Below are positions 24,656-49,080 of a stretch of 64,000 nt of DNA, piece by piece. This stretch comes from a virus (Duplodnaviria; Caudoviricetes). A program made the translations under genes and the position numbers. The stretch lies in the IMG/VR virus record IMGVR_UViG_2862281513_000001, positions 32,001 to 96,000 of that record. One strand, 5' to 3'. The stretch's first letter is position 1, and each line of letters opens with the position of its first letter. The notes beneath the pieces are model-generated. The model saw only the letters and a program-made list of their open reading frames with translations, had not been told where the DNA came from and did not search any database.

Positions 24656-24730
24656 TTCCGCCAACCCTCCGGGCCAACCTCGTTATCCCGGGAAGTTTGG
24701 TCAAGGAATCGTCAGGAAACCGCAGGTCAG
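24656..24730 (-). repeat. Array repeat copy 3 (contains upstream stop at 24727)
   Basis: Core 24656-24704 plus CGCAGGTCAG. Confidence 0.9.
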
Positions 24731-25389
24731 AGGCCGAACAACCCGTCCTGTACCGGCTCGGCGACCGGCGCCGTGGCGGGCTTGCCGTGGACCAGGTGCT
24801 CGGCGACCGTCCATCCGGTCCACGCGGGCGGCGTCTCGCCTCGCCGGCTGCTGTTGCCGGTGAGGACGAGCAGGTCGGCGCGGGCGAGGTGGACCGTGCC
24901 GTCGAGGATCAGCCACACCTCGCAGCGGGGCAGGCCGAGCGCGGTGATCATGGCCAGGTGGTGGATGTCGCCCCATCCGGCGTGCAGTGCACCAGGAGCG
25001 ACCCAGACCCACGTGCCGAGGTTCACGTCGCCCGGTCCGGCCGGGGTGTGCCGGTAGGGCGGGCGCTGCCGTACAGGCCGCGGTGGCTTCGGCGGGTAGA
25101 AGTGGCTCGGCGGGTAGTGCGGCTGGCGGGCCTCTTTGAGTTCGGCGGCCTGCCACCGGGTGACGTCGGCCGGGGTGTAGCAGAGGGGGCCGACGTGCCA
25201 CTTGCGGGGCGTCGTCTTGTCCCGCCAGACGGCCGCGCCGCAGGTGCAGCGGCTTTCCGACAGGTGCTCTCGTGCGGGTCCGCAGGGCCAGGCGGTGTTG
25301 CACGGGCGGCAGGCCGGCTGGCCGCTGTCCAGGCCGTGCGGGAGGTGGTGGTCGGGCAGGCGGATCGGCCGGATCGTCCAGGGCCTCAC
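24727..25389 (-). CDS. Hypothetical Cys/His-rich protein
   Basis: GTG start after AAGGA; CRPC..WPC, CTCG; ends QDGLFGL. Confidence 0.65.
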   Translation of the reverse strand: MRPWTIRPIRLPDHHLPHGLDSGQPACRPCNTAWPCGPAREHLSESRCTCGAAVWRDKTTPRKWHVGPLCYTPADVTRWQAAELKEARQPHYPPSHFYPPKPPRPVRQRPPYRHTPAGPGDVNLGTWVWVAPGALHAGWGDIHHLAMITALGLPRCEVWLILDGTVHLARADLLVLTGNSSRRGETPPAWTGWTVAEHLVHGKPATAPVAEPVQDGLFGL

Positions 25390-25469
25390 TGGGGCGTCCT
25401 TTCCGGGTGCGGTGGGTGGAGGATGGGCGCGGGCCGGGGAGCGCTCCCTGCTCCCCGGCCCGCCGGCTG

Positions 25470-26168
25470 CTACTGGCTCAGGACGTGGACGGCCTTGCCC
25501 GGACGGCGGGGCGAGTAGCACAGGTACTCGCCCCATTCGTCGTTCACGCCCTTGCCGGTGCGGTCCCAGACGAGCGTCCGGTCGCACTGGGCGCACGTTC
25601 CGGCGTCCTCCCCCGGCCTGCCCTGCTGCGGGAGGGTGTTGAGGAGGCGGACGGCTTCGGGCAGGCAGGTCGCGGTGTGGACGGTGGCGGTGGGGTCGAC
25701 GGGCGCCTGGTGCAGCTGCTCGGACGCGGTCGTGGCATCCGGGACGATCACGGTGGTGAGGCCGTCGGCGGCGGCGGCGTTGACGCTGGCGAGGATGCCC
25801 TCGGGGGCGCGCAGCCAGCCGGCCAGGTCGAGTTCGCCGGTTACCGCGATGCGGTCGAGGGCCCCCTCGTGGATGTGGCCGGCCGCGGCGAGGATGGCGC
25901 AGGCGATGGCGAGGTCGGACAGGGTGCCGTACGGGCGGTGGTCGTCCCGGGTGACCTGCACGTTGACGGTGCCGTCGGGCCACTCGTAGCCGCTGTTGAT
26001 GAGGGCCGCGCGGATGCGGTCGCGGGTCTCGCGCTCGTGGTCGACGCCGAGGATGACGCTGGCGTCGGGGGCGTCGGGCCAGATCCGGGCGAGGACCGTT
26101 GCGATGCCGTCGGCGGTGCCGACCCGGGCGGTCGCGCGGCGTTCGGTGGGGGTGCGGCTGTCGTTCAT
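25470..26168 (-). CDS. ComM/YifB (Mg-chelatase-like) N-terminal domain only, plus small Cys domain
   Basis: ETRDRIRAALINSGYEWP, DLAIACAILAA.G, GELDL.G; no Walker motifs. Confidence 0.8.
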   Translation of the reverse strand: MNDSRTPTERRATARVGTADGIATVLARIWPDAPDASVILGVDHERETRDRIRAALINSGYEWPDGTVNVQVTRDDHRPYGTLSDLAIACAILAAAGHIHEGALDRIAVTGELDLAGWLRAPEGILASVNAAAADGLTTVIVPDATTASEQLHQAPVDPTATVHTATCLPEAVRLLNTLPQQGRPGEDAGTCAQCDRTLVWDRTGKGVNDEWGEYLCYSPRRPGKAVHVLSQ

Positions 26169-26292
26169 GGCGGTGGCCTTTCTGGTGAGCGGAGGCGCCG
26201 GGGTGGCGGTTCCGGGGCGGGCGGCGCGCACCAGGCCCGTGGGCCTGTCGCGCCGCCCGCCCCGGGGGCGGCCGGCCGGCCGCCCGGCCGGG

Positions 26293-26508
26293 TCAGAAGC
26301 CGAACTCGCAGTACTCGCAGAACGTCGTCCGCACCTCCCCCTTGTTGTTGGTGAGCGGGACCAGGTCCTCGCCGCAGTCGCCGCAGACGCCGAAGTCGGT
26401 GACCGGCAGGGGGGTGCTGACGGGCGCCGCCGGGAGGACGGGCGCGGGGCTGACGTTGACCGTCGCGGTGACCGTGCCGGTGCTGTTGCTGATGAGGAGG
26501 ATCGCCAT
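26293..26508 (-). CDS. Small zinc-ribbon protein
   Basis: CGDCG...FCEYC; paralog of 48868-49068. Confidence 0.7.
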   Translation of the reverse strand: MAILLISNSTGTVTATVNVSPAPVLPAAPVSTPLPVTDFGVCGDCGEDLVPLTNNKGEVRTTFCEYCEFGF

Positions 26509-26553
26509 CGGGTGCTCCCTGGTGGTTGGTGGTGTGTTGTCCTGCATTCATCC

Positions 26554-26629
26554 TTCCACCACCCTCCCGGGATAACCTCGTTATCCCGGGAAGTTTGGTC
26601 AAGGAATCGTCAGTGAAACCGCAGGTCAG
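26554..26629 (-). repeat. Array repeat copy 4 (contains upstream stop at 26626)
   Basis: TCCCGGGATAAC-CTC-GTTATCCCGGGA perfect inner palindrome. Confidence 0.92.
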
Positions 26630-27417
26630 CCCTCCTCGGCGAGCAGCTGGAGGGCGGTGACCGCGGCGGTCAGTCGGCGGGCGCCGATGACGTCGAGCTT
26701 GAGCCCCAGGGCGAGGACGTCGCGGACCTGGTCGGTGGGGACGATGACGGTGCGGTAGCCGTTGGCGTGGGCGGTTCGGGCCGCGTCGTCGATTCCGGGC
26801 AGTGCCTCGACCGCGCCGCTGTGGCTGTTCAGCTCGCCGAGGAGCACGGCCTGGTCGAGGGCGCGCGGGTCGAGCTGGCCGCTGGCCGCGAGGAGGGCGC
26901 AGGCGGCCGCGAGGTCGAGGGTGCTGGTGACGTTGCGGTGATGGTCGATGCGGACAGACACCGCACCGCCGGGGAAGGTGAAGCCGCTGCGGGTGATCGC
27001 GTCGCGGATCCGGACGTCTGCCGTGCTGTCGTACTGGTTCCAGCCGGCGATCCGGAAGCTGTCCGCGCCGGGCCAGACCGTGGCCTCGACGAGCACCATG
27101 CCGGCCTTGGCGGCGCCGCTGGCGTGGGCGGCGGTGACGGCGAGGTTGCTGGTGTTGCTGTTCGGGGCGAGCGCGTACTCGGGGTTGCCGGATGCCTGCC
27201 GCAGGCCCTCGAGGAAGCTGTCGAGCGCCTCGGCCGCGGTGGCGCCCTTGATGATGTTGACCTCGCCGAGGGCGTCGGCCGCCTCGACGTCCAGCTCCTC
27301 GACGACGACCTGCCTGCGGGTGAGGTCGACGGGGGCGGGCGCGATGTCCCACAGGGTGTAGCTGGCTGCGTCGACGCGGCCGACGATGATGAACTCGGGG
27401 GTCCGGGTGGCGGTCAT
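26626..27417 (-). CDS. Second ComM/YifB N-terminal-domain protein with N-terminal extension
   Basis: RIRDAITRSGFTFP, LDLAAACALLAASGQ, LGEL; no AAA+ domain. Confidence 0.8.
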   Translation of the reverse strand: MTATRTPEFIIVGRVDAASYTLWDIAPAPVDLTRRQVVVEELDVEAADALGEVNIIKGATAAEALDSFLEGLRQASGNPEYALAPNSNTSNLAVTAAHASGAAKAGMVLVEATVWPGADSFRIAGWNQYDSTADVRIRDAITRSGFTFPGGAVSVRIDHHRNVTSTLDLAAACALLAASGQLDPRALDQAVLLGELNSHSGAVEALPGIDDAARTAHANGYRTVIVPTDQVRDVLALGLKLDVIGARRLTAAVTALQLLAEEG

Positions 27418-27480: not shown

Positions 27481-27753
27481 TCAGGACTTGCGGCGGTTGA
27501 TCTGGTGGAGGGTGACGCCCTCGGCGGCCAGGGCCCGGCAGATGTTGCCGCGCACCCACCCGCCCCAGCCGTCCGACTCGTACTCGGCGAGGAACTGTCG
27601 CCGCTTGGGGTTGGCCGTGTTCGGGCTGAACGTGGCCGCCAGCTCGTAGGCCAGGACTCGGGTGCTCCACGGGCCTTCGAACAGCTCGTCGGAGATCGCG
27701 TTGTCCTCCAGGTCCCAGTACCGGTGGAGGAGGGGGGTCTGGGTCTGGTCCAT
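27481..27753 (-). CDS. Hypothetical protein
   Basis: GGAG RBS, directly after a repeat. Confidence 0.7.
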   Translation of the reverse strand: MDQTQTPLLHRYWDLEDNAISDELFEGPWSTRVLAYELAATFSPNTANPKRRQFLAEYESDGWGGWVRGNICRALAAEGVTLHQINRRKS

Positions 27754-27801
27754 GGCTGGCGCTCCGTCCCTGGTGGGTGGTGGTGTGTCGTGCATTCATC
27801 A

Positions 27802-27877
27802 TTGGCCAAACCCACCCGGTTAACCTCCCTAGCCGGGCGGATTTGGTCAAGAGATCGACAAGAAAACCGCTGGTCAG
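27802..27877 (-). repeat. Array repeat copy 5 (contains upstream stop at 27874)
   Basis: Core 27802-27850. Confidence 0.9.
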
Positions 27878-29673
27878 GCGGCCAGGTCGTAGCGGCTGAT
27901 CTCCTCGCCGGTGATGCACTCGGCGAGCATGCAGATCAGCACCTCCGACGCGTTCGGGGTGACCGCGTTGCCCAGCTGGCGGACGCGGTCGCGCTTCGAG
28001 CCGAGCACCACGTAGTCGTCGGCGAAGGCCATCGCGCGCTGGATCTCGTGGGGCTGGAGCATCCGGAACAGGACGTCTTCGATCTTGATGTCGCCCTGGA
28101 CGAGGGCGAAGCGGTCGCGGGTGGAGAGGGCGCCGACGGGCTCGCTGACCGGGCGCGGGGTCCCGTTGCCGTAGTACGGGGCCAGGAAGGGTTCCCAGGT
28201 GACGAGGGACTGGTGGCCGGTGGTGGTGAGGGTCCGCATCGGCTCGGCCAGGTCGGTGCAGTGTTCGCCGCCGTCGCCGGTGGAGCCGTTGTTCCGCATC
28301 ATCATGCCCGGCATCGGGACGGCGGCCAGGCCGTGGTGGTTGCCGCTGGCGCAGACCGTGGCGAGCGGGTCGGTGATGGCGCGGACGTCGCTGGAGCCGC
28401 CCCGGATCTCGGTGATGAACGGCAGCCACGCGAGCCCGGCCTCGGCCCTGGCGGTCTGGGTCTGCATCGGCCCGTAGATCGTGCGGGCGTTCTTGCCTTC
28501 GCGGCCGTCGCAGGGGACGAGCAGCGGCGGTACTGCGAGCGCGTCGTTCTCGCGGGTGGTGCGGGTCGGCATCGGCTCCAGCAGGTCGGTGGCCGCGTCG
28601 CGCCAGGTGCCGCCGGTGGGCACCATCAGCGGGCGGGCGAACTTGTCCAGCCCGGCCTGGATGCGCCGCATCGTCTTCTCCGCCAGCGGCGTCTTGCGGT
28701 CGCCGATCCGACCGCCGGGGATCGACCAGTCGATGGCGGCCGCCGCGGGGATCGTCTCGGGCTCCACGATCTGGTGGCCGCACTTGGTGTTCGGGCACCG
28801 GTAGTCGTACTGGCTCTTGTACCGGCCCATGTCGACGCCGGGCTTGCGGAACACCTGTCGGGCCTTGACCATCTGGTCGCAGCCGGTGCAGAACGCCGAG
28901 GGGGCGAGCCACTTCTCGAAGTTCGGGTTCCGGCCGAGGCTGGCGTGCCAGTACACGAAGTACAGCCGGTCACGGGACTGCGGGGCGCGGTGGACGCTGC
29001 GCGGGTCGGCGTGCATCGAGTTCAGCGCGACCAGCTTGGTCCGGTAGCCCAGCTTGTGGAACTCCGCCACCCAGCGGTCCCACTCGGCCCACTGCCGGAC
29101 GTCGACCACGTTCTCGACGACGCCCGCCTTGACGAGCCCGCCGCGCTCCTGGACGCCGCGCAGGTAGAGCGGGATCTCCTCCATCAGCGCCCGGCTGGCC
29201 TGCTCCTCCTCGGTGGGGCCGCCGCTGTCGCGCTCTTCCTCGGTCTGGAACTTCTCCTCCTCCAGCTCCGCGTACAGGTCGAGGAGGTCGCCCTGGACGG
29301 CCTTCGCGAAGTCCCGCTTCTTGCCCTGGGCGATCGACCACTTGGTGCACTCGGGCGAGCCCCAGTGGATGTCGGTGATCGGCCAGGCCCAGACCGGGGC
29401 CTTGCGGATGTCGCCGATGTAGTGCGCGACGCCGGGGAAGTTCCGCTCGTGGCTCTCGATCGCGCGCTTCCAGTGGTTCGCGGCCCGGGTCACCTTGACG
29501 TTCGGGACGGCGTCCGCGCCCTGGGTGGAGCCGCCTGCGCCGCAGAACCAGTCCATGACGCTCAGTTCGGTGCCGTCGTGCCTGTACGCCTTGACTCGCC
29601 GGCGGCGGGCGTACGTCTGGGCGCCGCTGGAGGCCGAGGCCATCGCGCGGGTGGTGGAGGAGATGTAAGGCAT
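27874..29673 (-). CDS. Orphan DNA (cytosine-5) methyltransferase
   Basis: FCGAGG, GSPECT, ENV, Q.R.R, QLGNAV motifs. Confidence 0.92.
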   Translation of the reverse strand: MPYISSTTRAMASASSGAQTYARRRRVKAYRHDGTELSVMDWFCGAGGSTQGADAVPNVKVTRAANHWKRAIESHERNFPGVAHYIGDIRKAPVWAWPITDIHWGSPECTKWSIAQGKKRDFAKAVQGDLLDLYAELEEEKFQTEEERDSGGPTEEEQASRALMEEIPLYLRGVQERGGLVKAGVVENVVDVRQWAEWDRWVAEFHKLGYRTKLVALNSMHADPRSVHRAPQSRDRLYFVYWHASLGRNPNFEKWLAPSAFCTGCDQMVKARQVFRKPGVDMGRYKSQYDYRCPNTKCGHQIVEPETIPAAAAIDWSIPGGRIGDRKTPLAEKTMRRIQAGLDKFARPLMVPTGGTWRDAATDLLEPMPTRTTRENDALAVPPLLVPCDGREGKNARTIYGPMQTQTARAEAGLAWLPFITEIRGGSSDVRAITDPLATVCASGNHHGLAAVPMPGMMMRNNGSTGDGGEHCTDLAEPMRTLTTTGHQSLVTWEPFLAPYYGNGTPRPVSEPVGALSTRDRFALVQGDIKIEDVLFRMLQPHEIQRAMAFADDYVVLGSKRDRVRQLGNAVTPNASEVLICMLAECITGEEISRYDLAA

Positions 29674-29717
29674 GCGGTCCGTCCCTTCGGGTGGGGTGGT
29701 GTGTCGTGCATTCATCA

Positions 29718-29793
29718 TTGACCCCACCCCCCGGGATAATCGCGTTATCCCGGGGAGTTTGGTCAAAGAATCGTCAGGAAAGCCGCAGGTCAG
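29718..29793 (-). repeat. Array repeat copy 6 (contains upstream stop at 29790)
   Basis: Core 29718-29766. Confidence 0.92.
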
Positions 29794-30677
29794 ACGCCGT
29801 CCGGCTGGAACGGGATCTGCGGGTGCCCGTCCTTATCCAGCGCGTACCAGCACCACTCGAAGTGGCCGCCGATGCAGTAGCGGCCGTCCTCGTTCGGCCA
29901 GATCGCCCGGACCGACTTCTCTCGCCTTGTGCCGCCGAGGTACATCCAGCCGATTTCGAGCACGACGACTTCGGCACGGCTGTCGACCGTGCCGTCCAGG
30001 ACGTGGATGGTGTTCACGAAGCCGTGCCCGTAGCGGGCGGCCTCGGCCTGGGTCTCGGCCGCGATGATCCGGACGGTGGGGAGGTCGAACCACGGCCGTA
30101 CGAAGCCGTCGCGCTGGTCGGCCGGGTCGACGAGGGCCGGGTAGCGGTCGCGCTCGTTCGCGCACACCATGACCTCGACCATGGAGCTCGGGACTGCGTC
30201 CGGGGCGTCCGCGCCGGACGGGTCGAGGGTGAGGGAGGCCGCGCGCGGGAGGTCGAGCGACCAGACCGGCCGGCCGTCCCGGCCGGGCAGCTCCTCGCAC
30301 AGCGGGCTCCAGACGTCGCGCGTACTGTCGCCCAGGTACGCCGTCCAGCCGCCGAGGTCATGCAGGGCGTTCCCGGCCTCGGTCTCGCCGACGTCCTCGG
30401 TGAAGGTCCGCTCGTCACCGGCGGCCGTCCAGTAGCGGCCGGTGGGAAACAGCGAGTCCTTGCCTTCGGTCAGTTCGAGCCGTGCGGCGTCGAACGGGGC
30501 GTCGGGCTGGTGGCCGGTGAGGATGTCGCGGACGGCCGCCGCGGTGACGACGAGCATGACGCGGCCGAGCTGCTCGTGCGTGGTGCGGTTGTCGTTGAGG
30601 GCCTGGTCGACGGCCTCGGCGAGTGCCTGGCTGGCGGGCAGTTCGTAGGCGGGGCGGGTAGGGGTCTGGCGTTCCAT
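29790..30677 (-). CDS. Hypothetical protein; C-terminal domain paralogous to 31707-32765
   Basis: VDP...GFV.P.F...WMYL...DGRY.IGG..WCW shared. Confidence 0.8.
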   Translation of the reverse strand: MERQTPTRPAYELPASQALAEAVDQALNDNRTTHEQLGRVMLVVTAAAVRDILTGHQPDAPFDAARLELTEGKDSLFPTGRYWTAAGDERTFTEDVGETEAGNALHDLGGWTAYLGDSTRDVWSPLCEELPGRDGRPVWSLDLPRAASLTLDPSGADAPDAVPSSMVEVMVCANERDRYPALVDPADQRDGFVRPWFDLPTVRIIAAETQAEAARYGHGFVNTIHVLDGTVDSRAEVVVLEIGWMYLGGTRREKSVRAIWPNEDGRYCIGGHFEWCWYALDKDGHPQIPFQPDGV

Positions 30678-30718
30678 GCCGTGTCCGTTCTGTGTGGTGG
30701 GTGCTACGTCCTCGATCC

Positions 30719-30793
30719 TTGACCCCACCGGCCGGGTTAACCTCGTTATCCCGGCCGAGTTGGTCAAGGATTCGTCAGTGAGCTGCTGGTCAG
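30719..30793 (-). repeat. Array repeat copy 7 (contains upstream stop at 30790)
   Basis: Core 30719-30767. Confidence 0.9.
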
Positions 30794-31677
30794 CAGGTGA
30801 TGCCGTCGGCCAGGTACGAGCCGTCTTCGGCGACGCTCAGGGCGAACACCTCGGTCGCGGGGCCGCGCTCGACGCGGGTGGCGGGCAGCCACCGGTAGCC
30901 GTCGAAGTCGGGGCGCCGGCCGCCTTCGCTCCTCCAGCAGAGCTGCCATCCGATCTTGCCGGGCTTGCTGCTGTTGCTCAGTCCGCCGGGGAACCCGAGC
31001 GAGCAGACGAGGAGCCGCAGGCCGACCATGAACGCCTTGGAGTGCATGCGCACCTGGTTCTGCTGGCGGCGGGGGGCGTCGTTGACCAGGCCGACGAGGA
31101 ATGCGATCCGCAGCGTCTCGGGCATCGTCAGCACCCAGGCCGGGAAGCGGCGACCGGCCCCGTACTGGCCGAAGTGCTCGGCGAGCCAGTCGACCAGCTC
31201 GGGCCGGACGGCGGCCGCGGCCGCGCCCTTGAGGCGGATCATCGCCCCGGCGGCGTGGAGGACGTCCACCAGGTCCGCGTCGGCGAGCGGGGCGGGCAGG
31301 TCGGGGATGGGCAGCGGCTCCCCGAAGTGGAGTGGCGTGGCCAGCCGGTGGCGGTCGGTCAGGTCGCGGGCCCTGGTCCAGCCAGCTGCCGACAGGTCCC
31401 CGGCCGGGCCGCCGTCCAGCAGGACGGGCGCGGTCCGCGTGTGGAAGGGATGGTCGGCGGTCGTGGCGAAGCCGCTGATGTACGAGGCGCAGTGGACGCG
31501 GACGGTCTCGGTGGTCGCGGTCATCGTCTCGGTGACCGGGCGCCACCGGCGCTCGTGGGTGAACACCTCGTCCCCGGGGGTGACGGTCTCGATGGGGACG
31601 ATGCCGCGCAGGGTCAGGATCATGGTCCCGGCCGGGAAGCCTTCGGGGGCGGGTGCCGGGGGGCTCTGGTTGTCCAT
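30790..31677 (-). CDS. Free-standing Hint/intein-like protein with LAGLIDADG-like remnant, catalytic termini absent
   Basis: GFPAGTMILT..G..PIE....GDEV.TH, TTADHPF, VFALSVAED.SY.ADGI; no Cys1, no terminal HN. Confidence 0.8.
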   Translation of the reverse strand: MDNQSPPAPAPEGFPAGTMILTLRGIVPIETVTPGDEVFTHERRWRPVTETMTATTETVRVHCASYISGFATTADHPFHTRTAPVLLDGGPAGDLSAAGWTRARDLTDRHRLATPLHFGEPLPIPDLPAPLADADLVDVLHAAGAMIRLKGAAAAAVRPELVDWLAEHFGQYGAGRRFPAWVLTMPETLRIAFLVGLVNDAPRRQQNQVRMHSKAFMVGLRLLVCSLGFPGGLSNSSKPGKIGWQLCWRSEGGRRPDFDGYRWLPATRVERGPATEVFALSVAEDGSYLADGITC

Positions 31678-32833: not shown

Positions 32834-33142
32834 TCAGCTGGTGAAGAGGGCGAGCCACTCGTCCGCGCGCTCCGGGAGGCGCGTCTCCTTGCCCGCCCAG
32901 GCCATCTCGTCGTCGATCTGGCGGGCGAGCAGCTCGAACCGCTCGGAGGTGAAGTGCTCGCCGCGCTCCAGCGCCTGGGCCAGGGAGTGGGCCTTGATGG
33001 CCGCCGACCGCATCGCCTCCTTCTCGCAGCCGAAGCGCAGGAGGTCGGCGCGGGCGCCGGCGACCGTGCCGTAGCCGGTGAGGGCTGCGGCCGTGGCCTG
33101 GGCTGCGGTGGTGACGGTGATGGTGCGGGTGATGGTGGCCAT
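32834..33142 (-). CDS. Hypothetical protein
   Basis: GGGAGCCCGACATG leader after a repeat. Confidence 0.75.
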   Translation of the reverse strand: MATITRTITVTTAAQATAAALTGYGTVAGARADLLRFGCEKEAMRSAAIKAHSLAQALERGEHFTSERFELLARQIDDEMAWAGKETRLPERADEWLALFTS

Positions 33143-33184
33143 GTCGGGCTCCCTGGGTGGTGGTGGGTGGTGACACCTTCTTCA

Positions 33185-33260
33185 TTGACCCCACCGCCCG
33201 GGATAACCTCCGTATCCCGGTAGATTTGGCCAAGGAATCGGCAAGGAAACGGCTGGTCAG
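33185..33260 (-). repeat. Array repeat copy 8 (contains upstream stop at 33257)
   Basis: Core 33185-33233. Confidence 0.9.
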
Positions 33261-34084
33261 GCCATGGCGAACAGGTCGAGCTGGAGCGGCTGGCGCTGGT
33301 GCCATCCGTGGGTGGGGAGGCTGCCGTCGGGGTCGGCCTCCAGCACCAGGAGGACGGTGCGGACGTTCGTGCCGGACGGGGCGAAGGCGTCTTCGGGGAG
33401 CTTGACGATCTCGCCCTCGTTGTCGGCGATCAGCTTGCGGAACTCGACCGCGGCCCGGTCCGAGTGCCAGGCGATCGACTCGGGCATGACGGCCACGAGG
33501 GTGCCGCCGTCCTTCATGAACGCGAGCGCGTGCATGACGTGGGCGATGGCGTTGCTGAACGGCGGGTTCATCAGGACGCGGTCGTACGGCTCGTCGAGGG
33601 CGAGCGGGTCGAGGTCGAGGAAGTCACCCTGAACGACCTGGCGGGCGATGCCGAGGTCTCGGAGGACGTGGGCTCGGCGGGGGTCGATCTCGACGCAGTC
33701 CACGATGCCCATCTCCTCGGCGGCCCGCTTGGCGAGCGAGCCGGTTCCGGCCGACGGTTCCAGCACGGTGTGGCCGACCCGGATCGAGGCGTGCTCCAGC
33801 ATGTCGAACACGACCTTCGGCGGGGTCGGATACCAGCCCTGTTCGAACCGGCTGGGCCACTCGCCGGCCGCGAGGCAGTCGCGCATGAACTGCTCCACCG
33901 GGAAGGGGAAGACGTGGGCACGGACGGCCTTCCTGCCGTCCCACCGGCCGCCAATGTCCTTCAGCATCTGGTTCATCCGCTGGTACAGCGCGGGCTCCAG
34001 CTCGAAGGGGACGGCTACGCGGTCGCCGCTGATGATCGTGCGGTCGTCGGTGAGGACGGCGAGGACGTCGGCCGGGATCTGCAT
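33257..34084 (-). CDS. Orphan N6-adenine-type DNA methyltransferase
   Basis: WYPTP, VLEPSAGTG, NPPF, F..SGT.V; ends QLDLFAMA. Confidence 0.9.
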   Translation of the reverse strand: MQIPADVLAVLTDDRTIISGDRVAVPFELEPALYQRMNQMLKDIGGRWDGRKAVRAHVFPFPVEQFMRDCLAAGEWPSRFEQGWYPTPPKVVFDMLEHASIRVGHTVLEPSAGTGSLAKRAAEEMGIVDCVEIDPRRAHVLRDLGIARQVVQGDFLDLDPLALDEPYDRVLMNPPFSNAIAHVMHALAFMKDGGTLVAVMPESIAWHSDRAAVEFRKLIADNEGEIVKLPEDAFAPSGTNVRTVLLVLEADPDGSLPTHGWHQRQPLQLDLFAMA

Positions 34085-35775: not shown

Positions 35776-35818
35776 TGCCGTCCCTTTCGGTGGGGTGTGG
35801 TGTGTTACATCCTCTTCA

Positions 35819-35880
35819 TTGAGCCAAAGCCCCTGGGGTAATCACCGGAGCCCGAGAAGTTTGGTCGAGAAATCGTCAGG
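35819..35880 (-). repeat. Array repeat copy 11 (diverged)
   Basis: TTCATTGAGC...TTTGGTCGA, 50-bp core. Confidence 0.8.
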
Positions 35881-35907
35881 GGGCCGCGTGCGGGCCCCCG
35901 GGACCCG

Positions 35908-37793: not shown

Positions 37794-38081
37794 TCAGGCC
37801 GTGCGGTGGGCGGTGACGCCGCTGATCCAGTAGCGGGCGGCCGTCCGGTTGATGCCGATCAGCCGGACCTGCGCGACCACCGGGGCGATCTCACCGGCGC
37901 GCAGGGCCCGGACCAGGGCAAACACTCCGTCGTGCACCAGCTGGGAGCCCGTGGCGGTGTCGGGGTTGCCGCTGTGGAAGAGGGCGCGGAGGGGCATGGC
38001 CTGCTCGGTGAGGAAGTCGGCCAGCTCGCCCGCGTCGAGGGCGGTGGGGGTGATGGGCTTGCGGGCGGTGGTGGTGGCCAT
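37794..38081 (-). CDS. Hypothetical protein
   Basis: GGGAGCCCGACATG leader after a repeat. Confidence 0.75.
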   Translation of the reverse strand: MATTTARKPITPTALDAGELADFLTEQAMPLRALFHSGNPDTATGSQLVHDGVFALVRALRAGEIAPVVAQVRLIGINRTAARYWISGVTAHRTA

Positions 38082-38125
38082 GTCGGGCTCCCTGGGGTTT
38101 GTAGTGGTTGGTGACACCTTCATCA

Positions 38126-38202
38126 TTGACCAAATACCTCGGGGGTACCCTCCCTAGCCTGATTAATTTGGTCAAGAAGTAGTCAGGGAAGCCGCTGGTC
38201 AG
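38126..38202 (-). repeat. Array repeat copy 12
   Basis: Core 38126-38175. Confidence 0.88.
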
Positions 38203-38245
38203 AGGCGGTGGCCCGGCCGGAGCCGGGCCCGTGGCCGTCGGTCGG

Positions 38246-38938
38246 TCAGGCGGGCAGGTGCGCCCGGCCGGCCTCGGTCAGCTCGATCGGCTGGCCCTGG
38301 AACAGGGACTTCGAGCTGTCCAGCGTGACCCAGCGCTCCCGGAGCAGCACCTCGAAGGTGTCGGCATAGATGGTGCCGTTTTCACTGCCGATGCGCTCCC
38401 GGTTGCGCAGGCCGAACTGCGTGCGCTTCACGCCACCCTGGGCGATCAGCTCCAGGCCCTTGCGCTGGGCCGGGGTGGGGCGGCGGGCCGGAACCGGCTT
38501 GGCGGGCTCGGACTTGGACTCGGGCTCGGGCGTCGGCTCGGGCGCCGGCTCGTTGGCGGCCCGCTCGGCGGCCTCCAGGGCGCTGACGATGCAGTCGGTG
38601 TCCTGGAGGAACCGGCGGATACCGTCCCACTTGAGCCGGTCCTGCTCGTTGGAGATCGTGCAGCTGGAGCTGCTGGAGGTGGTGCCGACGAGCTGCTTCG
38701 TCAGCCTCTTGCGGAGCTTGAGGAACACCTCGATCGGGTCGTCGTCGCCCTGCTCTTCCAGCAGGAGCCGCCAGGGCATGGCGTCCGCCGTCTTCTCCAT
38801 CGCCTTGCGCATGCTGTAGGGGGTGAGGCTCCGGGTCATGTCGCGCGACTCGGTGGCCAGCGCCTCGCGGGCCTTGCCCTCGTCCTCGATCCGGGTGCCG
38901 CCGAGGTTGGTGAGGATTTCGATGATCCGGTCCTTCAT
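38246..38938 (-). CDS. Hypothetical protein with C-terminal wHTH-like domain
   Basis: GGAGG RBS; domain paralogous to 36952-37422. Confidence 0.75.
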   Translation of the reverse strand: MKDRIIEILTNLGGTRIEDEGKAREALATESRDMTRSLTPYSMRKAMEKTADAMPWRLLLEEQGDDDPIEVFLKLRKRLTKQLVGTTSSSSSCTISNEQDRLKWDGIRRFLQDTDCIVSALEAAERAANEPAPEPTPEPESKSEPAKPVPARRPTPAQRKGLELIAQGGVKRTQFGLRNRERIGSENGTIYADTFEVLLRERWVTLDSSKSLFQGQPIELTEAGRAHLPA

Positions 38939-38983
38939 GGTGCCCTCCGTGGTGGTTGGTGGTGATTGGTGACACCTTCATCA

Positions 38984-39060
38984 TTGACCAAGGGCTTCGG
39001 GAGTACCCTCTCTAGACCGATTAATTTGGTCAAGGAATCGTCAGGGAAACCGCAGGTCAG
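38984..39060 (-). repeat. Array repeat copy 13 (contains upstream stop at 39057)
   Basis: Core 38984-39033. Confidence 0.9.
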
Positions 39061-41822
39061 GCGACTGCGAACAGGTCGAGCTGCTCGGGCGTCTGGCCGT
39101 CGGCCTCCAGCGGGGACAGCTCGGGCATCGGCTTCTGCTTGAGGTCCGGCAGGACCGGCTTCGGCTGGGGATTGACCGCGTCCTCGCGCAGCTCGGCGAC
39201 CACCGCGGCGTCCAGGCCGTGCGTCTCGATCTCCTCCTCGGTCGGCACCCAGCCGGCCGGCCGCCGCTGGAGCCGGAACACGATGCCCTGCACCTTCGCC
39301 CAGGCCGCCCAGAGCCGGTCTTCCCGGTCCTCCCATTCCATCAGCCGCTTGTGGGCCTCCCGGAACTCCGCGCTGGCCGCCTTCCGTGCGGCCTCGTCCT
39401 GCGCGGCCTGCTCGGCGAGCCTGCGGGCCTGGACGCCGTGGAGGAGGGGGCGCAGCCGCTCGCATTCCTGCTCGCGGTTCTTCTCCACCGGGGTCGGCTT
39501 CCAGCGCTTCCACACCGCCACCGCCCGGCGTCCGTCGACGGTGACCAGGACGGGCCGCTCACGGTTGGCGTCGGCCGCGCCGACGGTGACGAATCCGGCC
39601 TTCTGCAGGGCGCTCAGCCGGTGGACCGACATCAGGCGCCCGGCGGTGCCGGGGGTGTCCCGGCAGTACAGCGAGCCGAACTGGTGGAGGTAGAGGCGTC
39701 CGGCCGCCGCGGCGATGACGAACTCGGCCTGCCCGGTCGACCATCCGAGTGCGGCGGCCTGCTCGCGCTGGAGGCGCAGCTCCTTCGGGTCCTCGGCGGG
39801 CGGGGCGGTCTCGTCGACCGGCTGCTCGGGCTCGGCCGTCGCGGGCTCGTCGGCGGGTTCCTCGTGGGCCGGCTCAGGCTCGTCGACCGGCTGCTCGGGC
39901 TCCGCCTCCGGCGTCTCCTCTGCGGGCGGCTCGGCGGCCGCCGGGGGCTCCTCGGCCGGGGGCTCGATCAGCGTGGCCTGGTCGGGCCCGGCCGCCTCGG
40001 GCTCTGCCGCGGGGGGTTCGGTGGGCTCGATGCCGTGGACGATGCCGCGGCCCGGGGAGCCGCTCCACCGGCCCTCGCGGTACTGGAAGCCGTCGGCCGC
40101 CAGGCGCCGGGTGACTGCCTCCAGCAGCGACCGGGACCACACCGACTCGGTGAACTTCGTGCCCTCGGGCGCCGTGATGGTGACCGGCTCGTGCAGCTTG
40201 TGCGGCTGGCCCTTGCCGTCGAGGTACGTCAGCGTCGCCTCGGTGGCGTCCCACCCGCAGTCGACCTTGACCTTCTTCGGGACCTTCGGATCGCTGCGCT
40301 TCTTCGTCTTCGGCTTTGCGGCGAGCGCGGCGCGGACCTCGCTCGCCGGCTGCGCCAGGTGGGCCTTCCATGCCGACTTCGTGCCGGGCACCGTGCCGTC
40401 GGCGAGGAAGGCGAGCATCGCCGCCTCGGGGCAGCGGGCCCGGATCTTCGTGTAGTCCATGCCGAAGGTCCAGGTGCTGCCGCCCTCGGTGGCGTCCTCC
40501 AGCGTCATGACCCGCTTGGTGAGCCGCAGGTTCCAGGCGATCGACAGCGTCTTGGGGTTGGCCCGCTTGATCTGGTACCAGGTGCCGCTGTAGAGCGCGA
40601 AGTCGCCGGGGGCGAAGTCGTCGGGCTCCCACAGCTTCACGCCATCCTGGCGGGCCTCCTCGACCACTTCCTCCCACCCCGCGATTTCCTCGCGGAGGTC
40701 CTCGATCCGGCGCTCGGCCCGGTCTGCGGTCCGGCCCGCGGCCAGCTGCTCGTCGCGGTAGCGCTCCAGCTTGCGCAGCTCCGTGTTCAGCTTCTCCAGC
40801 CGCCGACGGGTGCGGTTGGGGTCGTAGCGGCGGGCCTTGTACTGCGCGGCGGTCTCCGCGCGGTCGCTGTGGTGCTGGGCCCTTTCCTGCTCCGCGATCG
40901 AGGCCCGCATGTTGTTGTCGCTGCGCTCGATGGCGCGGCGGTGGCGGCGCTCGCTGTGGTGGCCGACGAGGATCGGCTGGCCGGGCTCGATGCCGTCCAG
41001 CGCTCCGAGGGCCGCCTTGTGGCGGGCGTTGGAGCGGGCGGCCGCGCTGCTGGCGTAGTCGCTGTGCCGCTCGGCCCGGTTCTCGGCCCGTTCCAGCCGC
41101 TCGGCCTCGGCCTCTTTGAAGCTGCGCCGCTTGCTCTCGTCGATCTCGACGGTCACCTCCCACCCGGCCTCGCGCAGAGCCGCGACCGCACGCCGGATGC
41201 GCCAGTGGTCGGCCTCTCGGTCGCGGGAGTTGCGGATGTAGAGCGCGCCGAGGTTGCGGGAGGAGCGGAAGCCGATCGGGCGGACGATCTCGTACACGCC
41301 GTCGTGCTTCCTGGAGCCCTCCAGGAGCGTGCCGTCCGCGCGGGTGTGGGTGATGGTGAGCGAGCCCTTGGAGGGCCGGGGCTCCTCGGCCGGGGGCTCC
41401 TCGGCCTCTTCCGGCTGAGCCGGTTCCTCGAGGGCCGCCGTCTCGCTGGCCGGCTCCGGCTCGGGCTCCGGCTCGGGCGCGGGCTCGGCGGCGGGCGGGG
41501 CAGGCGGTTCCTCGCGGATCTTCTCGACGGCCCCGTTGCTGATCGTGCAGTGCGGGCGGCCCTTGTCGCTGTAGCGGACGCACACGGTGAAGGACCAGCC
41601 GCCGTCTTCCTCGGTCCAGCGCTCGATGTCGTCGGCGTGGGCTGCGGCCGTCTCGTCCGCGTGCGCGGTGAGGAGGAGCGCGTACGTGCGGACGCGCTCA
41701 CCGGCCTTGTTGTAGTCGCCGTCCACGCGGAAGTCCTTGCCCTGGCCCTGGGTGAGGCCGAGGCGCCGCAGGGCGCGGGCGAGGGCGATGCTGGGGCTCT
41801 TGGCGGGTGGGGTGGTGGCCAT
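39057..41822 (-). CDS. Large multidomain DUF3560-like protein
   Basis: GQPILVGHHSERRHRR; Pro/Glu linkers; ends EQLDLFAVA. Confidence 0.88.
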   Translation of the reverse strand: MATTPPAKSPSIALARALRRLGLTQGQGKDFRVDGDYNKAGERVRTYALLLTAHADETAAAHADDIERWTEEDGGWSFTVCVRYSDKGRPHCTISNGAVEKIREEPPAPPAAEPAPEPEPEPEPASETAALEEPAQPEEAEEPPAEEPRPSKGSLTITHTRADGTLLEGSRKHDGVYEIVRPIGFRSSRNLGALYIRNSRDREADHWRIRRAVAALREAGWEVTVEIDESKRRSFKEAEAERLERAENRAERHSDYASSAAARSNARHKAALGALDGIEPGQPILVGHHSERRHRRAIERSDNNMRASIAEQERAQHHSDRAETAAQYKARRYDPNRTRRRLEKLNTELRKLERYRDEQLAAGRTADRAERRIEDLREEIAGWEEVVEEARQDGVKLWEPDDFAPGDFALYSGTWYQIKRANPKTLSIAWNLRLTKRVMTLEDATEGGSTWTFGMDYTKIRARCPEAAMLAFLADGTVPGTKSAWKAHLAQPASEVRAALAAKPKTKKRSDPKVPKKVKVDCGWDATEATLTYLDGKGQPHKLHEPVTITAPEGTKFTESVWSRSLLEAVTRRLAADGFQYREGRWSGSPGRGIVHGIEPTEPPAAEPEAAGPDQATLIEPPAEEPPAAAEPPAEETPEAEPEQPVDEPEPAHEEPADEPATAEPEQPVDETAPPAEDPKELRLQREQAAALGWSTGQAEFVIAAAAGRLYLHQFGSLYCRDTPGTAGRLMSVHRLSALQKAGFVTVGAADANRERPVLVTVDGRRAVAVWKRWKPTPVEKNREQECERLRPLLHGVQARRLAEQAAQDEAARKAASAEFREAHKRLMEWEDREDRLWAAWAKVQGIVFRLQRRPAGWVPTEEEIETHGLDAAVVAELREDAVNPQPKPVLPDLKQKPMPELSPLEADGQTPEQLDLFAVA

Positions 41823-41878: not shown

Positions 41879-42145
41879 TCAGTGGACGCGGGTGGCGGCC
41901 ATCGCGGCCTCGACGATCGGGAGGGTCTCGGTGAGGGTGGCCGCGATGTAGAGGCACTCGTGGTTGCCCCAGGCCGCGCGGCCGGCGATGTAGGCCGCGC
42001 CGCTGCCCTGCGGGAGCTGGACGGTGTAGGTGTAGCCCGCGTGCTCGATCTCGGTCCGCAGGCCCAGGGTGGTGCGCTGCCAGCGGGTGGCCTCCGCCGC
42101 CGAGGCGAAGAGGGCGGTGAGGGTGGTGGCGGGGATGGTGGCCAT
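41879..42145 (-). CDS. Hypothetical protein
   Basis: GGGAGCCCGACATG leader after a repeat. Confidence 0.75.
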   Translation of the reverse strand: MATIPATTLTALFASAAEATRWQRTTLGLRTEIEHAGYTYTVQLPQGSGAAYIAGRAAWGNHECLYIAATLTETLPIVEAAMAATRVH

Positions 42146-42186
42146 GTCGGGCTCCCTGGGGTTGGTGGTTGGTGACACCTTCATCA

Positions 42187-42261
42187 TTGCTCCCACCCTC
42201 CGGGATAACCTCGTTATCCCGGATTGTTTGGTCAAGAGATCGGCAAGTATGCCCAGGTCAG
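42187..42261 (-). repeat. Array repeat copy 14 (contains upstream stop at 42258)
   Basis: TCCGGGATAAC-CTC-GTTATCCCGGA. Confidence 0.92.
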
Positions 42262-42701
42262 ACGTAGTGCCGGGGGTCGCGGCCGTCACGGATGGCCGCC
42301 AGCCGTTGGAGCTGGCGGCCAATCCCCATGCCTACACCGATCAGCGGGGTCAGCGCGTGCGGCCAGACCTCCCGGCAGTGGCCGACGTAGAACCGCCCGG
42401 CGAGCACGATGACGTCCTCCGCCTGGTCGACGCCCAGCTCTCCGGCCTGCTCGCGCAGCCTGTCGACGGTCACGCCGTCCGGGTCGCCGGGGCGCGTGTC
42501 GTACGGCTGGAGGACTTGCGTGGTGCGGACGAAGCCGTGCAGGTCGCTGAGGATGAGGAGCGTGCCGCCGTCGACGATGAGCCGATCGGCCGCCGCCCGG
42601 CACGCGCGGTGATAGCTGCCGACGTACAGCTCGCCGGCCGGTGCCGGGTGGTCCAGCTTGCGGGCCGCGCAGGGGATGACGACGAGGCGGGTTGCGGTCA
42701 T
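42258..42701 (-). CDS. DUF6884-like protein
   Basis: VIPCAARK....PA.ELY.G..H...ILS..HG......PYD. Confidence 0.8.
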   Translation of the reverse strand: MTATRLVVIPCAARKLDHPAPAGELYVGSYHRACRAAADRLIVDGGTLLILSDLHGFVRTTQVLQPYDTRPGDPDGVTVDRLREQAGELGVDQAEDVIVLAGRFYVGHCREVWPHALTPLIGVGMGIGRQLQRLAAIRDGRDPRHYV

Positions 42702-43873: not shown

Positions 43874-43958
43874 GGCTGCCTTTCTGGATGAGGTGGGGCG
43901 TCCGGACGGTGGCCGCTGAGCTGGGCGGATACCGTCCGGACGCCGTCCGGACGGTGGG

Positions 43959-44594
43959 TCAGGAGAAGTTGGTCTGGTCGGCGTGCTCGCCGCCGCGCTT
44001 CCAGATGAGGGCGCGGACGTGGTTCGCGGGGACCTCGTAGAAGAGGCGGCCGGTGAGCGGGTCGCCGTTGAGGCGGGTCAGCTGGAGGCTCGTCTCCTCC
44101 AGCTCCCAGGCGTCGCTCGCGGGCGGCTCGATGCCCTCGGGCAGGTAGACGTCCACCTCGCCGTCGCCGGCTTCGGCCTTGATGGCGATGACCTCGCCGT
44201 CGGCCAGGCGGATGCGGAGCATCGGGCGGGGGCCGGTGCCGGTGCCTTCGAGTACGGCCTGGTCGAAGCGGTCGGTGGTGGGGTCGCTCTGGTCGGCGTG
44301 CTCGCCGCCGTGCTCCTCGATGAGCTTGCGGACGTCGGCCACCTGGACCTCGTAGAAGTAGCGGCCGTTGACCGGGTCGTCACCGGCGGTCAGCCATGCC
44401 TCCCACGCGTCTTCCAGCTCCCAGCTGTCGCCGTCGGGGGTCTGGATCTCGTCGGGCAGGTAGACGTCCACGGTGGCCGCGCAGGAGGCCGCCTTGATGC
44501 TGATGAGCTGGCCGTCGGCCAGGCGCAGGTTGTAGTGGACGCCGCCGGTGCCGTCGGCGAGGAACTGCTCGAAGTGGGAGGTGGTGGTGGCCAT
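43959..44594 (-). CDS. Acidic protein made of two tandem ~100-aa domains
   Basis: RLADG..I.IKA......VDVYLP...WELE...GR.FYEV...GGEHADQ occurs twice. Confidence 0.8.
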   Translation of the reverse strand: MATTTSHFEQFLADGTGGVHYNLRLADGQLISIKAASCAATVDVYLPDEIQTPDGDSWELEDAWEAWLTAGDDPVNGRYFYEVQVADVRKLIEEHGGEHADQSDPTTDRFDQAVLEGTGTGPRPMLRIRLADGEVIAIKAEAGDGEVDVYLPEGIEPPASDAWELEETSLQLTRLNGDPLTGRLFYEVPANHVRALIWKRGGEHADQTNFS

Positions 44595-44638
44595 GGCTGG
44601 CTCCGTTCGGTGAGTGGTGGGTGGTGACACCTTCATCA

Positions 44639-44714
44639 TTGACCCCACCACCCGGGATAACCGCGTTATCCCGGGAAGTTTGGTCAAGGATTCGGCAAGG
44701 AAACCGCTGGTCAG
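44639..44714 (-). repeat. Array repeat copy 15, best consensus (contains upstream stop at 44711)
   Basis: TTGACC-CCACCA-CCCGGGATAAC-CGC-GTTATCCCGGG-AAGTTT-GGTCAA. Confidence 0.95.
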
Positions 44715-45325
44715 ACGGTGGCGACCGCGGCGGTGAAAGCGGCGTCGAGGGACTGGACGAAGTCGGCGCCGACGGCCGCGAGGTGGGCGGCCTGGCGGGC
44801 TTCGGCCGCCTCGGCGTCCCTGGCGTGGACGGCCAGCCCGCACGAGCACCAGGTGGTGGTGCGGTCGCTGGAGTCCATCCGCTCGTGGGCGGCGGCCACC
44901 AGACTGAGGCGGGCGGCCAGGGTGAGGCGCAGGTGCTCGTTGTCGGTGTTGAGGAGGAACCCCTGGGCGAGGAGCCGCTCCGCCCGGCTCGGCGGGATCT
45001 GGCAGACGCCGGCCTCGATGACGGGCAGGGTGTACCGCTCGGAGTCGACGAGGCGGACGACGGGGACGGAGGCGATGACCCGCAGGTCGGACAGCTCGTA
45101 GTCGGTGGGGTCGGCGGGGACTTGCGGGGTGAGGGTGATGGAGCGCAGGGCCGGGGTCAGCGTGCCGGGGTCGATCCGGCGCCAGCGGATGATGGCGCCG
45201 CCGGTGCGCTGGGGCTCGATGGCGTAGCCGCGGTTGCAGGCCCGGCGCAGGAGGACCAGGGCGTGGGGCTCGCTGGCGGTGCCGGTGGTGGTGCTGCTGC
45301 CACTGTCGACGGTCTCGGTGAACAC
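44711..45325 (-). CDS. Hypothetical protein with C-terminal CSCG..H motif
   Basis: GGAGG RBS with GTG. Confidence 0.7.
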   Translation of the reverse strand: MFTETVDSGSSTTTGTASEPHALVLLRRACNRGYAIEPQRTGGAIIRWRRIDPGTLTPALRSITLTPQVPADPTDYELSDLRVIASVPVVRLVDSERYTLPVIEAGVCQIPPSRAERLLAQGFLLNTDNEHLRLTLAARLSLVAAAHERMDSSDRTTTWCSCGLAVHARDAEAAEARQAAHLAAVGADFVQSLDAAFTAAVATV

Positions 45326-45404
45326 GATGGCCTCCTGGGTGGGGGGTGGGGCCCGGCCGGGGCTGTGGCCGGGCCCTGGGTGGTGGTGTGTCGTGCATTC
45401 ATCC

Positions 45405-45480
45405 TTGACCAAGCCTGGCCGGTTAACCTCGATGTACCGGCCGGTTTGGTCAAGGGATCGACAAGGAAACCGCTGGTCAG
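45405..45480 (-). repeat. Array repeat copy 16 (contains upstream stop at 45477)
   Basis: Core 45405-45453 with GGCCGGT/ACCGGCC arms. Confidence 0.9.
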
Positions 45481-49068: not shown

Positions 49069-49080
49069 GACTCTCTCCCT

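Follow-up and report, generated by a model that had tools for sequence, protein, structure and literature searches.

Why do so many unrelated genes of one phage end on the same base of a repeated element? The question is raised by a 64,000-nt stretch of the IMG/VR virus record IMGVR_UViG_2862281513_000001 (positions 32,001 to 96,000, referred to here as the window), which corresponds to C1:4203224-4267223 of the 9.6-Mb, 71% GC chromosome of a genome (G000) whose relatives are Streptomyces. Between positions 22300 and 49200 the window carries an array of about 34 small genes, and the intergenic regions of this array contain many copies of a repeat, here called the cassette. A preliminary description had observed that eleven open reading frames (ORFs) stop on a TGA within the upstream end of this repeat, and had proposed that genes are captured or exchanged at this precise point, as they are in integrons, repeat plus ORF(s) forming a modular unit. 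The analysis presented here favors a different answer, to which we assign a probability of about 55%: the repeat would be a promoter/operator cassette, and the TGA contained in its upstream motif would serve as the stop codon of genes that became packed onto it.

A profile search of the window identified 19 cassette copies instead of the 18 first counted, 17 of them strong and two weak (Table 1). The copies are about 130-150 nt long, all lie on the minus strand and between genes, and all 19 share the orientation of the genes. The cassette pattern is confined to 26 kb of the prophage, with no other site in the genome. A genus-wide DNA search using one cassette as query and scoring two candidates per genome returned none in 400 sampled genomes, and a loose version of the pattern yielded nothing beyond single chance matches on viral contigs. 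A mobile repeat akin to miniature inverted-repeat transposable elements or repetitive extragenic palindromes was rejected, the copies being limited to the prophage region, always intergenic and in a single orientation.

The eleven stop positions first reported proved correct throughout. The corresponding minus-strand ORFs, with a G+C content at third codon positions of 0.91-0.97, end on the TGA that the aligned CTGACC contains, with a TTGACC box 25-26 nt further downstream. This TGA occupies the aligned place in 14 of the 19 copies and is used as a stop in 11 of those 14 (P = 6.9e-4 for at least 11 of 14 in frame, given 1/3); it is present and unused in the copies at 38175, 34527 and 24225. 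The base preceding the TGA is C in all 14 copies, versus 41% of host stops. No pairwise similarity was detected among the 11 fused proteins at E<=0.01, and hence the statement that unrelated genes are joined to the element at the same base, through a precise and non-random junction, holds. The wider motif is also concentrated in this region: CTGACC[AT]GCGG occurs 10 times in the 64-kb window versus 79 times in the other 9.56 Mb, where it provides the stop in 2 of the 79 cases. When up to one mismatch was allowed, CTGACCWGCGG gave 20 matches in the window versus 6.4 expected, 16 of them on the minus strand, and 15 of these 16 map to gene ends or non-coding DNA, a pattern that is repeated in related arrays. 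A separate, perfect CTGACCTGCGG is found at 21926-21936; it is solitary, with no cassette after it, and lies in a non-coding stretch of about 900 nt that spans from a tRNA-Arg gene (22094-22170, minus strand) to the first late gene. A common read-through tail was considered and dropped, as a second in-frame TGA is found 27 nt further on in only 8 of the 11 copies.

Read 5' to 3' on the coding strand, the cassette opens with an upstream edge, sYC-TGA-CC-(T/A)-GCGG-YTTYC followed by YTG(A/C)CGAT-YCC, and continues into a core made of TTGACC-AAA, 14 nt and GAGGTTA (TTGACC-N17-GAGGTTA). The core is followed by CCCGG, 6-7 nt, GGTCAATGATGAA, a leader, an ACC-rich tract, GGGAG and, at a nearly fixed distance, the ATG, so that every unit has its own promoter-like core, its leader and a ribosome-binding site at a fixed distance from the start codon. 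The TTGACC box is a perfect -35-like element, and in the four related arrays compared below the coding strand contains the pattern TTGACC-N17-GNGNNTA 12, 8, 9 and 6 times, the opposite strand never. A palindrome, CCGGGATAAC-GAG-GTTATCCCGG, overlaps the core and is complete in some copies only; across 58 copies just the outer YCGG/CCGR pairs (4 bp) are consistently kept, with one covarying pair. This pairing would fit a structure as well as an operator. A BldD-box-like match and a SigB/SigF-type promoter, both judged by eye, were dropped as candidates, as was a promoter of the extracytoplasmic function (ECF) sigma type in the window cassette, which gave 0 pattern matches.

The leader exists in two types, GGTGTCACC and TGCACGACACACC, which are distributed in blocks: the former occupies the middle of the array (copies 44687 to 33233) and the latter both of its ends. 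Orthologous cassettes in related arrays keep their leader type, and copies therefore appear to evolve by position, without homogenization. In a subset of cassettes (33120-33150, 38060-38090, 42125-42150 and 44575-44600) the common sequence extends through the ribosome-binding site and the start codon into the next gene, as AGGGAGCCCGAC-ATG-GCC-ACC-A, which makes the first residues (M-A-T-T/I) common to unrelated genes.

Two kinds of junction connect the cassettes to the genes that precede them. The 11 fused junctions have zero spacer and no significant fold (z from -0.8 to +1.6), except for a borderline case at 26602 (z -2.8). At the other eight, the upstream gene uses its own stop (four TAG, four TGA), located 41-76 nt before TTGACC, and a hairpin follows. 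The hairpin is strong in three of these eight (z of -3.8, -5.9 and -6.0), stands in place of the distal motif in two and encloses the motif in several others. The junction at 34527, for instance, presents a perfect 14-bp stem with CTGAGC in its loop (z = -3.8), and the CTGACC of the copy at 47352 lies 17 nt beyond the TGA with which the PP2C gene ends, inside a hairpin. A cassette located after a terminator-like hairpin must bring a promoter with it, and we take this as the main argument for cassettes being promoters. Pairing between gene tails and the GCGG that follows CTGACC was rejected as an explanation, because it amounts to an inconsistent 3-6 bp and the z-scores of fused junctions are near 0.

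The history of these junctions can be followed in three related arrays. A protein search using one genome per species led to two Streptomyces arrays, G401 (contig 10) and G402 (contigs 32 and 19), and a viral-contig search with the C5 methylase led to a fourth, L133. Gene order is mostly conserved across the three, with protein identities of 35-95%. Stops located 23-27 nt before TTGACC are found at five junctions of G401, five of G402 and six of L133; the others lie at 14 nt (one) and 10 nt (two) in G401, at 14 nt (one) and 10 nt (one) in G402, together with a TAG at 25 nt without the motif after it, and at 10 nt (one) in L133. Orthologous genes do not always stop at the same place. In the methylase gene g25 the TGA is kept, and a 12-nt deletion directly after it places the stop at 14 nt in G401 and G402, as opposed to 26 nt in the window. 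The gene g30, which stops at 25 nt in the window, arrives in another frame in G401 and reads through CTGACC to a second TGA (CTGACG), 10 nt before the -35-like box; the L133 ORF at the corresponding position is also in another frame and ends on CTGACG. Orthologs of g04 have TGA or TAG at the identical place, and g27, fused in the window and in L133, ends in G402 on its own TAG, 21 nt before the motif. The cassette therefore provides stops in two frames, and the choice among them shifts over time.

Homologs encoded outside such arrays indicate where these proteins end when no cassette follows. More than 60 homologs of g25, in prophages without this cassette, mostly end in ...AA followed by a stop that is usually TGA and often then CC, in agreement with the ...YDLAA-TGA of the window gene. 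Homologs of the methylase-like g20 in other prophages end in QLDLFA(A)A and a stop, the QLDLFA tail being native there. Since both sets of homologs end at the same residue as the window genes, the TGA of these two genes represents the native stop position, on which the cassette starts, and is not borrowed from the repeat as had been supposed. A more complex history is recorded by g23, the free-standing remnant of an intein, in which Gly replaces Cys1 and the terminal His-Asn is missing. The homologous intein of the prophage L180 (8411-11593) is intact inside a C5 methylase (1060-aa ORF), where it is inserted at the ...SPE|C catalytic motif and ends ...SHN|C; the window methylase contains no intein. 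The window g23 ends ...ADGITC on the cassette TGA, just short of the would-be splice junction, and its L151 counterpart is nine codons longer, with its own TAG 7 nt before the motif.

The distal motif itself extends beyond this type of cassette. Two more distant prophages, L149 and L151, encode methylases 61-62% identical to that of the window, and their intergenic cassettes have a different core: an ECF-sigma-like GGAAC-N16-17-CGTTG followed by ATAGTGACTACCCACTAA, found 4 and 6 times on the coding strand (e.g. L151 651-770, 5865-5985 and 12552-12670). These cassettes nonetheless begin with CTGACCTGC-N2-3-TTTC..CGAT, while the genes upstream of them often end on their own TAG 8-15 nt earlier, so that the motif is kept and unused as a stop. 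Cassettes in L180, L165 and L144 are nearer to those of the window, with TTTGCC or TTTACC, GAGGTTA and GGAAGGATCGAAGTAG, and in most of them the stop is fused to the same distal motif. That the motif is kept where it does not serve as a stop, and ahead of a different promoter core, argues that it has a function of its own, independent of promoter type. That function could be that of an upstream promoter element, of a regulator site of the stoperator kind, or of the 3' half of a former terminator, and the motif may well be older than the cassette core. The sequences between stop and motif also vary in length: g25 of L151 reads ...LAA-TGACC, a 44-nt hairpin spacer and CTGACCTGC, versus ...LAA-TGACCAGCGG in the window, and tandem duplications of TGACC or of the motif are present at junctions in G402 (35753), L180 (8338/8354) and L165 (9806/9815).

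If genes were captured at the TGA, differences in gene content should begin and end there. Breakpoints were mapped by comparing the window array with G401 and G402. The indel that removes g09, the DUF6884 gene, begins 4 nt before the g08 stop and ends exactly at the C|TGA of g09; the g08 tail (KLAALDGRD) recurs in the final codons of g09 (AAIRDGRD...) through the same 12 nt, and in G401, which lacks g09, the preceding g08 ends on the TGA of cassette 6. The PP2C gene (47405-48427) is mobile, being located after g00 in the window, absent in G401 and placed between g06 and g07 in G402, where the g06-g07 spacer of about 50 nt, beginning TGACCC, is duplicated on both sides of it; homology between the window and G402 PP2C genes stops on the final base of the TGA. 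G401 has an additional small gene, whose insertion begins 16 nt before a stop and ends exactly at the start codon that comes next. It also lacks the g26-g27 unit, the edges of which fall in the leader of one cassette and, in the following cassette, in the interval between distal motif and -35-like box; recombination of one cassette with another would give this result. Cassette 11 together with g19 (34199-34435) stands before g20 in the window and before g25 in G401 and G402, its left edge a few bases from the motif. Other breakpoints map to the -35-like box, start codons, positions 4-25 nt before stops, the leader and the inside of genes; within cassettes alone, three distinct places are hit. 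Along the alignment of the window array with L133, the identity profile displays no sharp changes or recombination boundaries at cassettes. Breakpoints of this kind are what phage mosaicism ordinarily produces at gene borders that carry short direct repeats, and the TGA is one boundary among many. The idea of repeat plus ORF(s) as a modular unit holds for a few events (g26-g27, cassette plus g19). Capture or exchange at the TGA, as in integrons, is not supported, and the combination of largely conserved gene order, scattered breakpoints and orthologs using different stops is essentially the outcome that the preliminary description had set beforehand as refuting capture.

The reading that we favor accommodates these observations as follows. 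Each transcription unit would open with the same regulatory cassette, which fills the gap between one stop and the next start. The edge motif CTGACC(W)GCGG-TTTCC would be a separate, asymmetric element, most likely a protein-binding site or an upstream promoter element, that contains a TGA by happenstance. Wherever no terminator hairpin is needed, the preceding gene could be packed straight onto the motif, with the motif TGA as its stop. A palindrome that lies between two short direct repeats is a classic substrate for deletion, and the likely route is a deletion between the TGA(CC) of the gene and the TGACC of the motif that removes the hairpin. Such a deletion would leave one in-frame stop, so that fused junctions would be in frame without any site-specific step, and it would explain both the native C-termini and the tandem duplications noted at some junctions. 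Small indels would later make a gene end on another TGA within the cassette or on a stop of its own, and units would be lost, gained and moved through recombination between cassette copies, like other instances of phage mosaicism.

Several observations weigh against this explanation. The -10-like GAGGTT is non-canonical, only the A at position 2 and the T at position 6 being kept, and a scan of the cassette with the sigma-70 consensus gave no site. About 13% of host genes end in TGACC and 7% in CTGACC, too few for deletion between TGACC repeats alone to yield 11 of 19 fused junctions. Junctions in the window are either fused or provided with a hairpin, with no short plain spacers, a regularity beyond what loose compaction would lead one to expect. 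For the intein remnant g23, the TGA now in use was not the original end. Finally, only four arrays of this cassette type are available, and most of their junctions are common by descent.

The scarcity of TGACC at host stops and the lack of short plain spacers keep two alternatives alive. The motif might be a recombination linker, where recombination by short homology or microhomology joins gene modules or exchanges them, perhaps through a phage recombinase and without a site-specific integrase. We regard this as unlikely while taking it seriously, as precise joining would account for the absence of plain spacers and for the conservation of the motif across lineages with differing promoter cores, and several edges do fall on or near it: the right boundary of the g09 indel, the end of PP2C homology and the TGACCC that opens the spacers flanking PP2C in G402, the left edge of the translocated cassette plus g19, and the tandemly duplicated motifs. 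Most breakpoints are nevertheless found away from the motif, tails and junctions are mostly inherited vertically among orthologs, the comparison with L133 lacks sharp transitions at cassettes, no recombinase gene was recognized in the window, and 9-11 bases offer little homology. The other alternative, a functional coupling, seems decidedly improbable. Translation of the upstream gene would then have to terminate precisely on the motif, for example because the ribosome that stops there masks or uncovers a site in the RNA. Such a site might serve for Rho loading or RNase action in the C-rich leader, or for the binding of a protein, and at the other junctions the hairpin would take over this task. 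The strict dichotomy of the window between zero spacer and hairpin, the enclosure of CTGACC or CTGAGC in or near the hairpin loop of four copies (three in the window, one in G401), the conserved UGA-C context and an ACC-rich, G-poor leader that could be likened to a Rho-utilization tract would all fit such a coupling. It is contradicted by orthologs whose stops vary in position (26, 25, 24, 23, 14 or 10 nt, or a TAG) while the cassette is retained, and by L149 and L151, in which genes mostly stop 8-15 nt upstream with no hairpin. A broader proposal, that CTGACCTGCGG-TTTCC is a promoter-independent "gene-end" signal of a clade of large Streptomyces prophages, we consider quite doubtful. Under it, TGA sharing would reflect a dedicated rule for joining or packing genes instead of passive compaction. 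The motif would act either as a roadblock or regulator site akin to a stoperator or as a module-joining boundary, and it would be kept before sigma-70-like cassettes by one lineage and before ECF-like ones by another.

Far less can be said for the two extremes, a dedicated capture system and mere coincidence. The array does resemble an integron, in that many unrelated, co-oriented genes alternate with an imperfect inverted repeat that contains or adjoins their stops, and some whole units are gained, lost or moved; on this basis the repeat could be an attC-like site at which a dedicated site-specific recombinase captures genes at the TGA. Unlike integrons, however, the array has no integron integrase, attI or common promoter, and each unit carries the promoter-like core, leader and ribosome-binding site that integron cassettes lack. 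Its palindrome arms (GGGATAAC / GTTATCCC) do not fit the RYYYAAC / GTTRRRY cores of attC and pair consistently over their outer 4 bp only, and gene order is conserved among relatives with scattered breakpoints. A recombinase, which the preliminary description had advised looking for elsewhere on the element, was sought: Pfam scans of about 60 window ORFs recognized none in or beside the array, the genome has its nearest PF00589 match, a tyrosine recombinase, at C1:4288939-4289499, about 22 kb past the right end of the window, and a serine recombinase gene is located at C1:4304416, 37 kb past it. An integron-like origin agrees with none of the defining features tested and is therefore barely credible. 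Coincidence, according to which the alignment is an artifact of a common stop context, has in its favor that CTGACC is the most frequent stop hexamer of the host and that four genes inside units also end in CTGACC, and deserves next to no credence: that context accounts for only 7.4% of host genes versus 11 of 19 junctions, the distance to TTGACC is fixed, the motif extends as (W)GCGG-TTTCC and persists both in distant lineages and in copies on which no gene stops, and the frame usage given above (P = 6.9e-4) departs from chance.

Table 1. Cassette copies of the array, with the junction at the upstream edge of each, and other features of the window (window coordinates; fused stops are those described as ending on the motif TGA).
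Feature	Position	Strand	Description
Cassette copy 1 (weak; nhmmer 20.8)	49051..49173	-	Array head, facing the divergent candidate regulator gene
Cassette copy 2 (weak)	48707..48835	-	Upstream ORF has own TGA 56 nt before the -35-like box, then hairpin
Cassette copy 3	47246..47398	-	PP2C own stop 47405-47407; CTGACC 47383-47388 unused, within hairpin
Cassette copy 4	45355..45487	-	Gene 45477-46406 ends on motif TGA 45477-45479
Cassette copy 5	44577..44728	-	Gene 44711-45325 ends on motif TGA 44711-44713
Cassette copy 6	42127..42271	-	DUF6884 gene 42258-42701 ends on motif TGA 42258-42260
Cassette copy 7	38922..39074	-	DUF3560 gene 39057-41822, tail QLDLFAVA, ends on motif TGA 39057-39059
Cassette copy 8	38064..38214	-	Own stop 38246-38248, then hairpin; CTGACC 38197-38202 kept, unused
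Cassette copy 9	35757..35905	-	Upstream TAG 35908-35910; G+C-rich hairpin in place of distal motif
Cassette copy 10	35125..35272	-	Gene 35260-35775 ends on motif TGA 35260-35262
Cassette copy 11	34417..34566	-	ParB-HTH gene, own stop 34579-34581; hairpin
Cassette copy 12	33126..33274	-	Methylase-like gene (g20) 33257-34084, tail QLDLFAMA, ends on motif TGA 33257-33259
Cassette copy 13	30661..30805	-	Intein remnant (g23) 30790-31677 ends on motif TGA 30790-30792
Cassette copy 14	29655..29805	-	Gene 29790-30677 ends on motif TGA 29790-29792
Cassette copy 15	27739..27889	-	C5 DNA methylase (g25) 27874-29673 ends on motif TGA 27874-27876
Cassette copy 16	26491..26639	-	ChlI/Lon-like gene 26626-27417 ends on motif TGA 26626-26628
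Cassette copy 17	24596..24742	-	Gene 24727-25389 (g30) ends on motif TGA 24727-24729
Cassette copy 18	24113..24257	-	Upstream TAG 24299-24301, two strong hairpins (z = -5.9); CTGACC 24246-24251 unused
Cassette copy 19	22805..22919	-	ParB TAG 22954-22956; strong hairpin (z = -6.0) in place of distal motif
Large terminase	16559-18148		Late region
MuF fusion with ADP-ribosyltransferase domain	6160-10350		Late region; 1396 aa
Phage DAM-like/GNAT protein	19739-21193		Late region
Tandem-HTH (helix-turn-helix) protein gene	49235..49843	+	202 aa, two HTH-like repeats; divergent from array
WhiB-like transcription factor gene	59938..60267	-	

Nearly all genes of the window are on the minus strand, and positions 1-22000 contain phage late genes. 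The terminase, the MuF fusion and the DAM-like/GNAT protein that flank the array, together with a related viral contig of 111 kb, identify the element as a large temperate prophage of Streptomyces, with the array as its early, non-structural region. It has no close known relative at the DNA level, as a megablast search of 16 kb against phage and plasmid records found no related record, and its best large-terminase match has 45% identity. The MuF-like minor head protein, with its exoenzyme-type ADP-ribosyltransferase domain, is probably a virion-delivered effector, as in other actinophages. Families recognized in the array include ParB, two ParB-HTH paralogs, two DUF3560 proteins, C5 and N6-type methylases, two ChlI/Lon-like proteins, DUF6884, PP2C and a Hint-domain protein, the three ParB-like proteins being encoded at 22954-24129, 34579-35142 and 35260-35775; most remaining genes have no family, and comparison with PHROGs left most array proteins without a function. 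Tails resembling beta-clamp-binding motifs are present on three unrelated array proteins: EQLDLFAVA (39057-39095), LQLDLFAMA (33257-33295) and VQDGLFGL (24727-24760).

Two genes beyond the head of the array encode possible regulators of the cassettes. One candidate is the tandem-HTH protein, whose gene also stands next to the array in both G401 and G402. WhiB-like proteins act via region 4 of the principal sigma factor, and the WhiB-like protein of the window could be a second candidate, as regulator or partner of TTGACC promoters. Another repeat family of the window consists of the palindrome CGTCCGGACG, for which a search with GTCCGGACG gave 34 matches versus 3.4 expected. Its members form clusters of 2-6, between genes and within ORFs, at 6365-6465, 13859-13868, 43279-43387, 43899-43953, 55394-55423 and 61582-61722, and the g06-g07 spacer that is doubled around PP2C in G402 is built from these repeats.

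Repeats with some of these properties have been described in other actinophages. The stoperators of cluster A mycobacteriophages, recognized by L5 gp71 and Bxb1 gp69, are 24-34 asymmetric, mostly intergenic sites in one orientation (PMC3029335). The CTGACC(W)GCGG motif resembles them in being present in many copies, intergenic, asymmetric and in one orientation relative to transcription in a temperate actinophage, and the box GGTGGGGTCAATG bears a superficial resemblance to the L5 consensus GGTGGMTGTCAAG, the two sequences being different. Here, in contrast, the site is part of a composite cassette of about 130 nt and contains a stop codon in most copies; sites of the L5 and Bxb1 type are defined by binding of the phage immunity repressor and by a block of transcript elongation in the lysogen. 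The start-associated sequences (SAS) and extended start-associated sequences (ESAS) of cluster K mycobacteriophages consist of a 13-bp repeat at the ribosome-binding site, with imperfect inverted repeats just upstream, before unrelated genes (PMC3203893). Both systems tie repeats to gene starts ahead of unrelated families, but the cassette spans from the previous stop to the next start, including a -35/-10-like pair, and its end-of-gene motif has no SAS counterpart. The temperate Streptomyces phage phiC31 is reported, by Ingham, Wilson, Smith and their colleagues (1993, 1995 and 1999), to contain conserved inverted repeats (CIRs) and conserved early promoters, its early region reportedly carrying many intergenic copies of a non-canonical promoter with a repressor-binding inverted repeat, the same idea of layout as here. 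To our knowledge, the phiC31 elements have not been described as containing the upstream stop codon, and they show no sequence relation to the present element, which matched no phage record at the DNA level. Gain and loss of single genes is exemplified by gene 14 of mycobacteriophage Corndog, which is flanked by a 17-bp direct repeat (PMC4351075). Gain and loss at stops and starts, with short direct repeats, is likewise found for g09 (12 nt), PP2C (about 50 nt) and g26; unlike in Corndog, one recurrent border sequence is here a conserved functional motif, common to more than 40 junctions in four genomes.

Actinophage repeats such as stoperators, SAS/ESAS and the phiC31 CIRs are known and poorly understood, and this lineage provides an unusually complete composite cassette running from stop to start. 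What stands out most is that CTGACCTGCGG is conserved independently of the promoter: as a separable upstream motif that persists where lineages differ in promoter type, it is a clean target for binding and reporter work. The array also constitutes a small natural system for how phage genes pack against regulatory DNA and how mosaic junctions form. If the motif turned out to signal joining, the old view that "linker sequence" elements underlie modular phage evolution would regain ground; if not, the shared TGA would reflect an orderly yet ordinary compaction of the genome.

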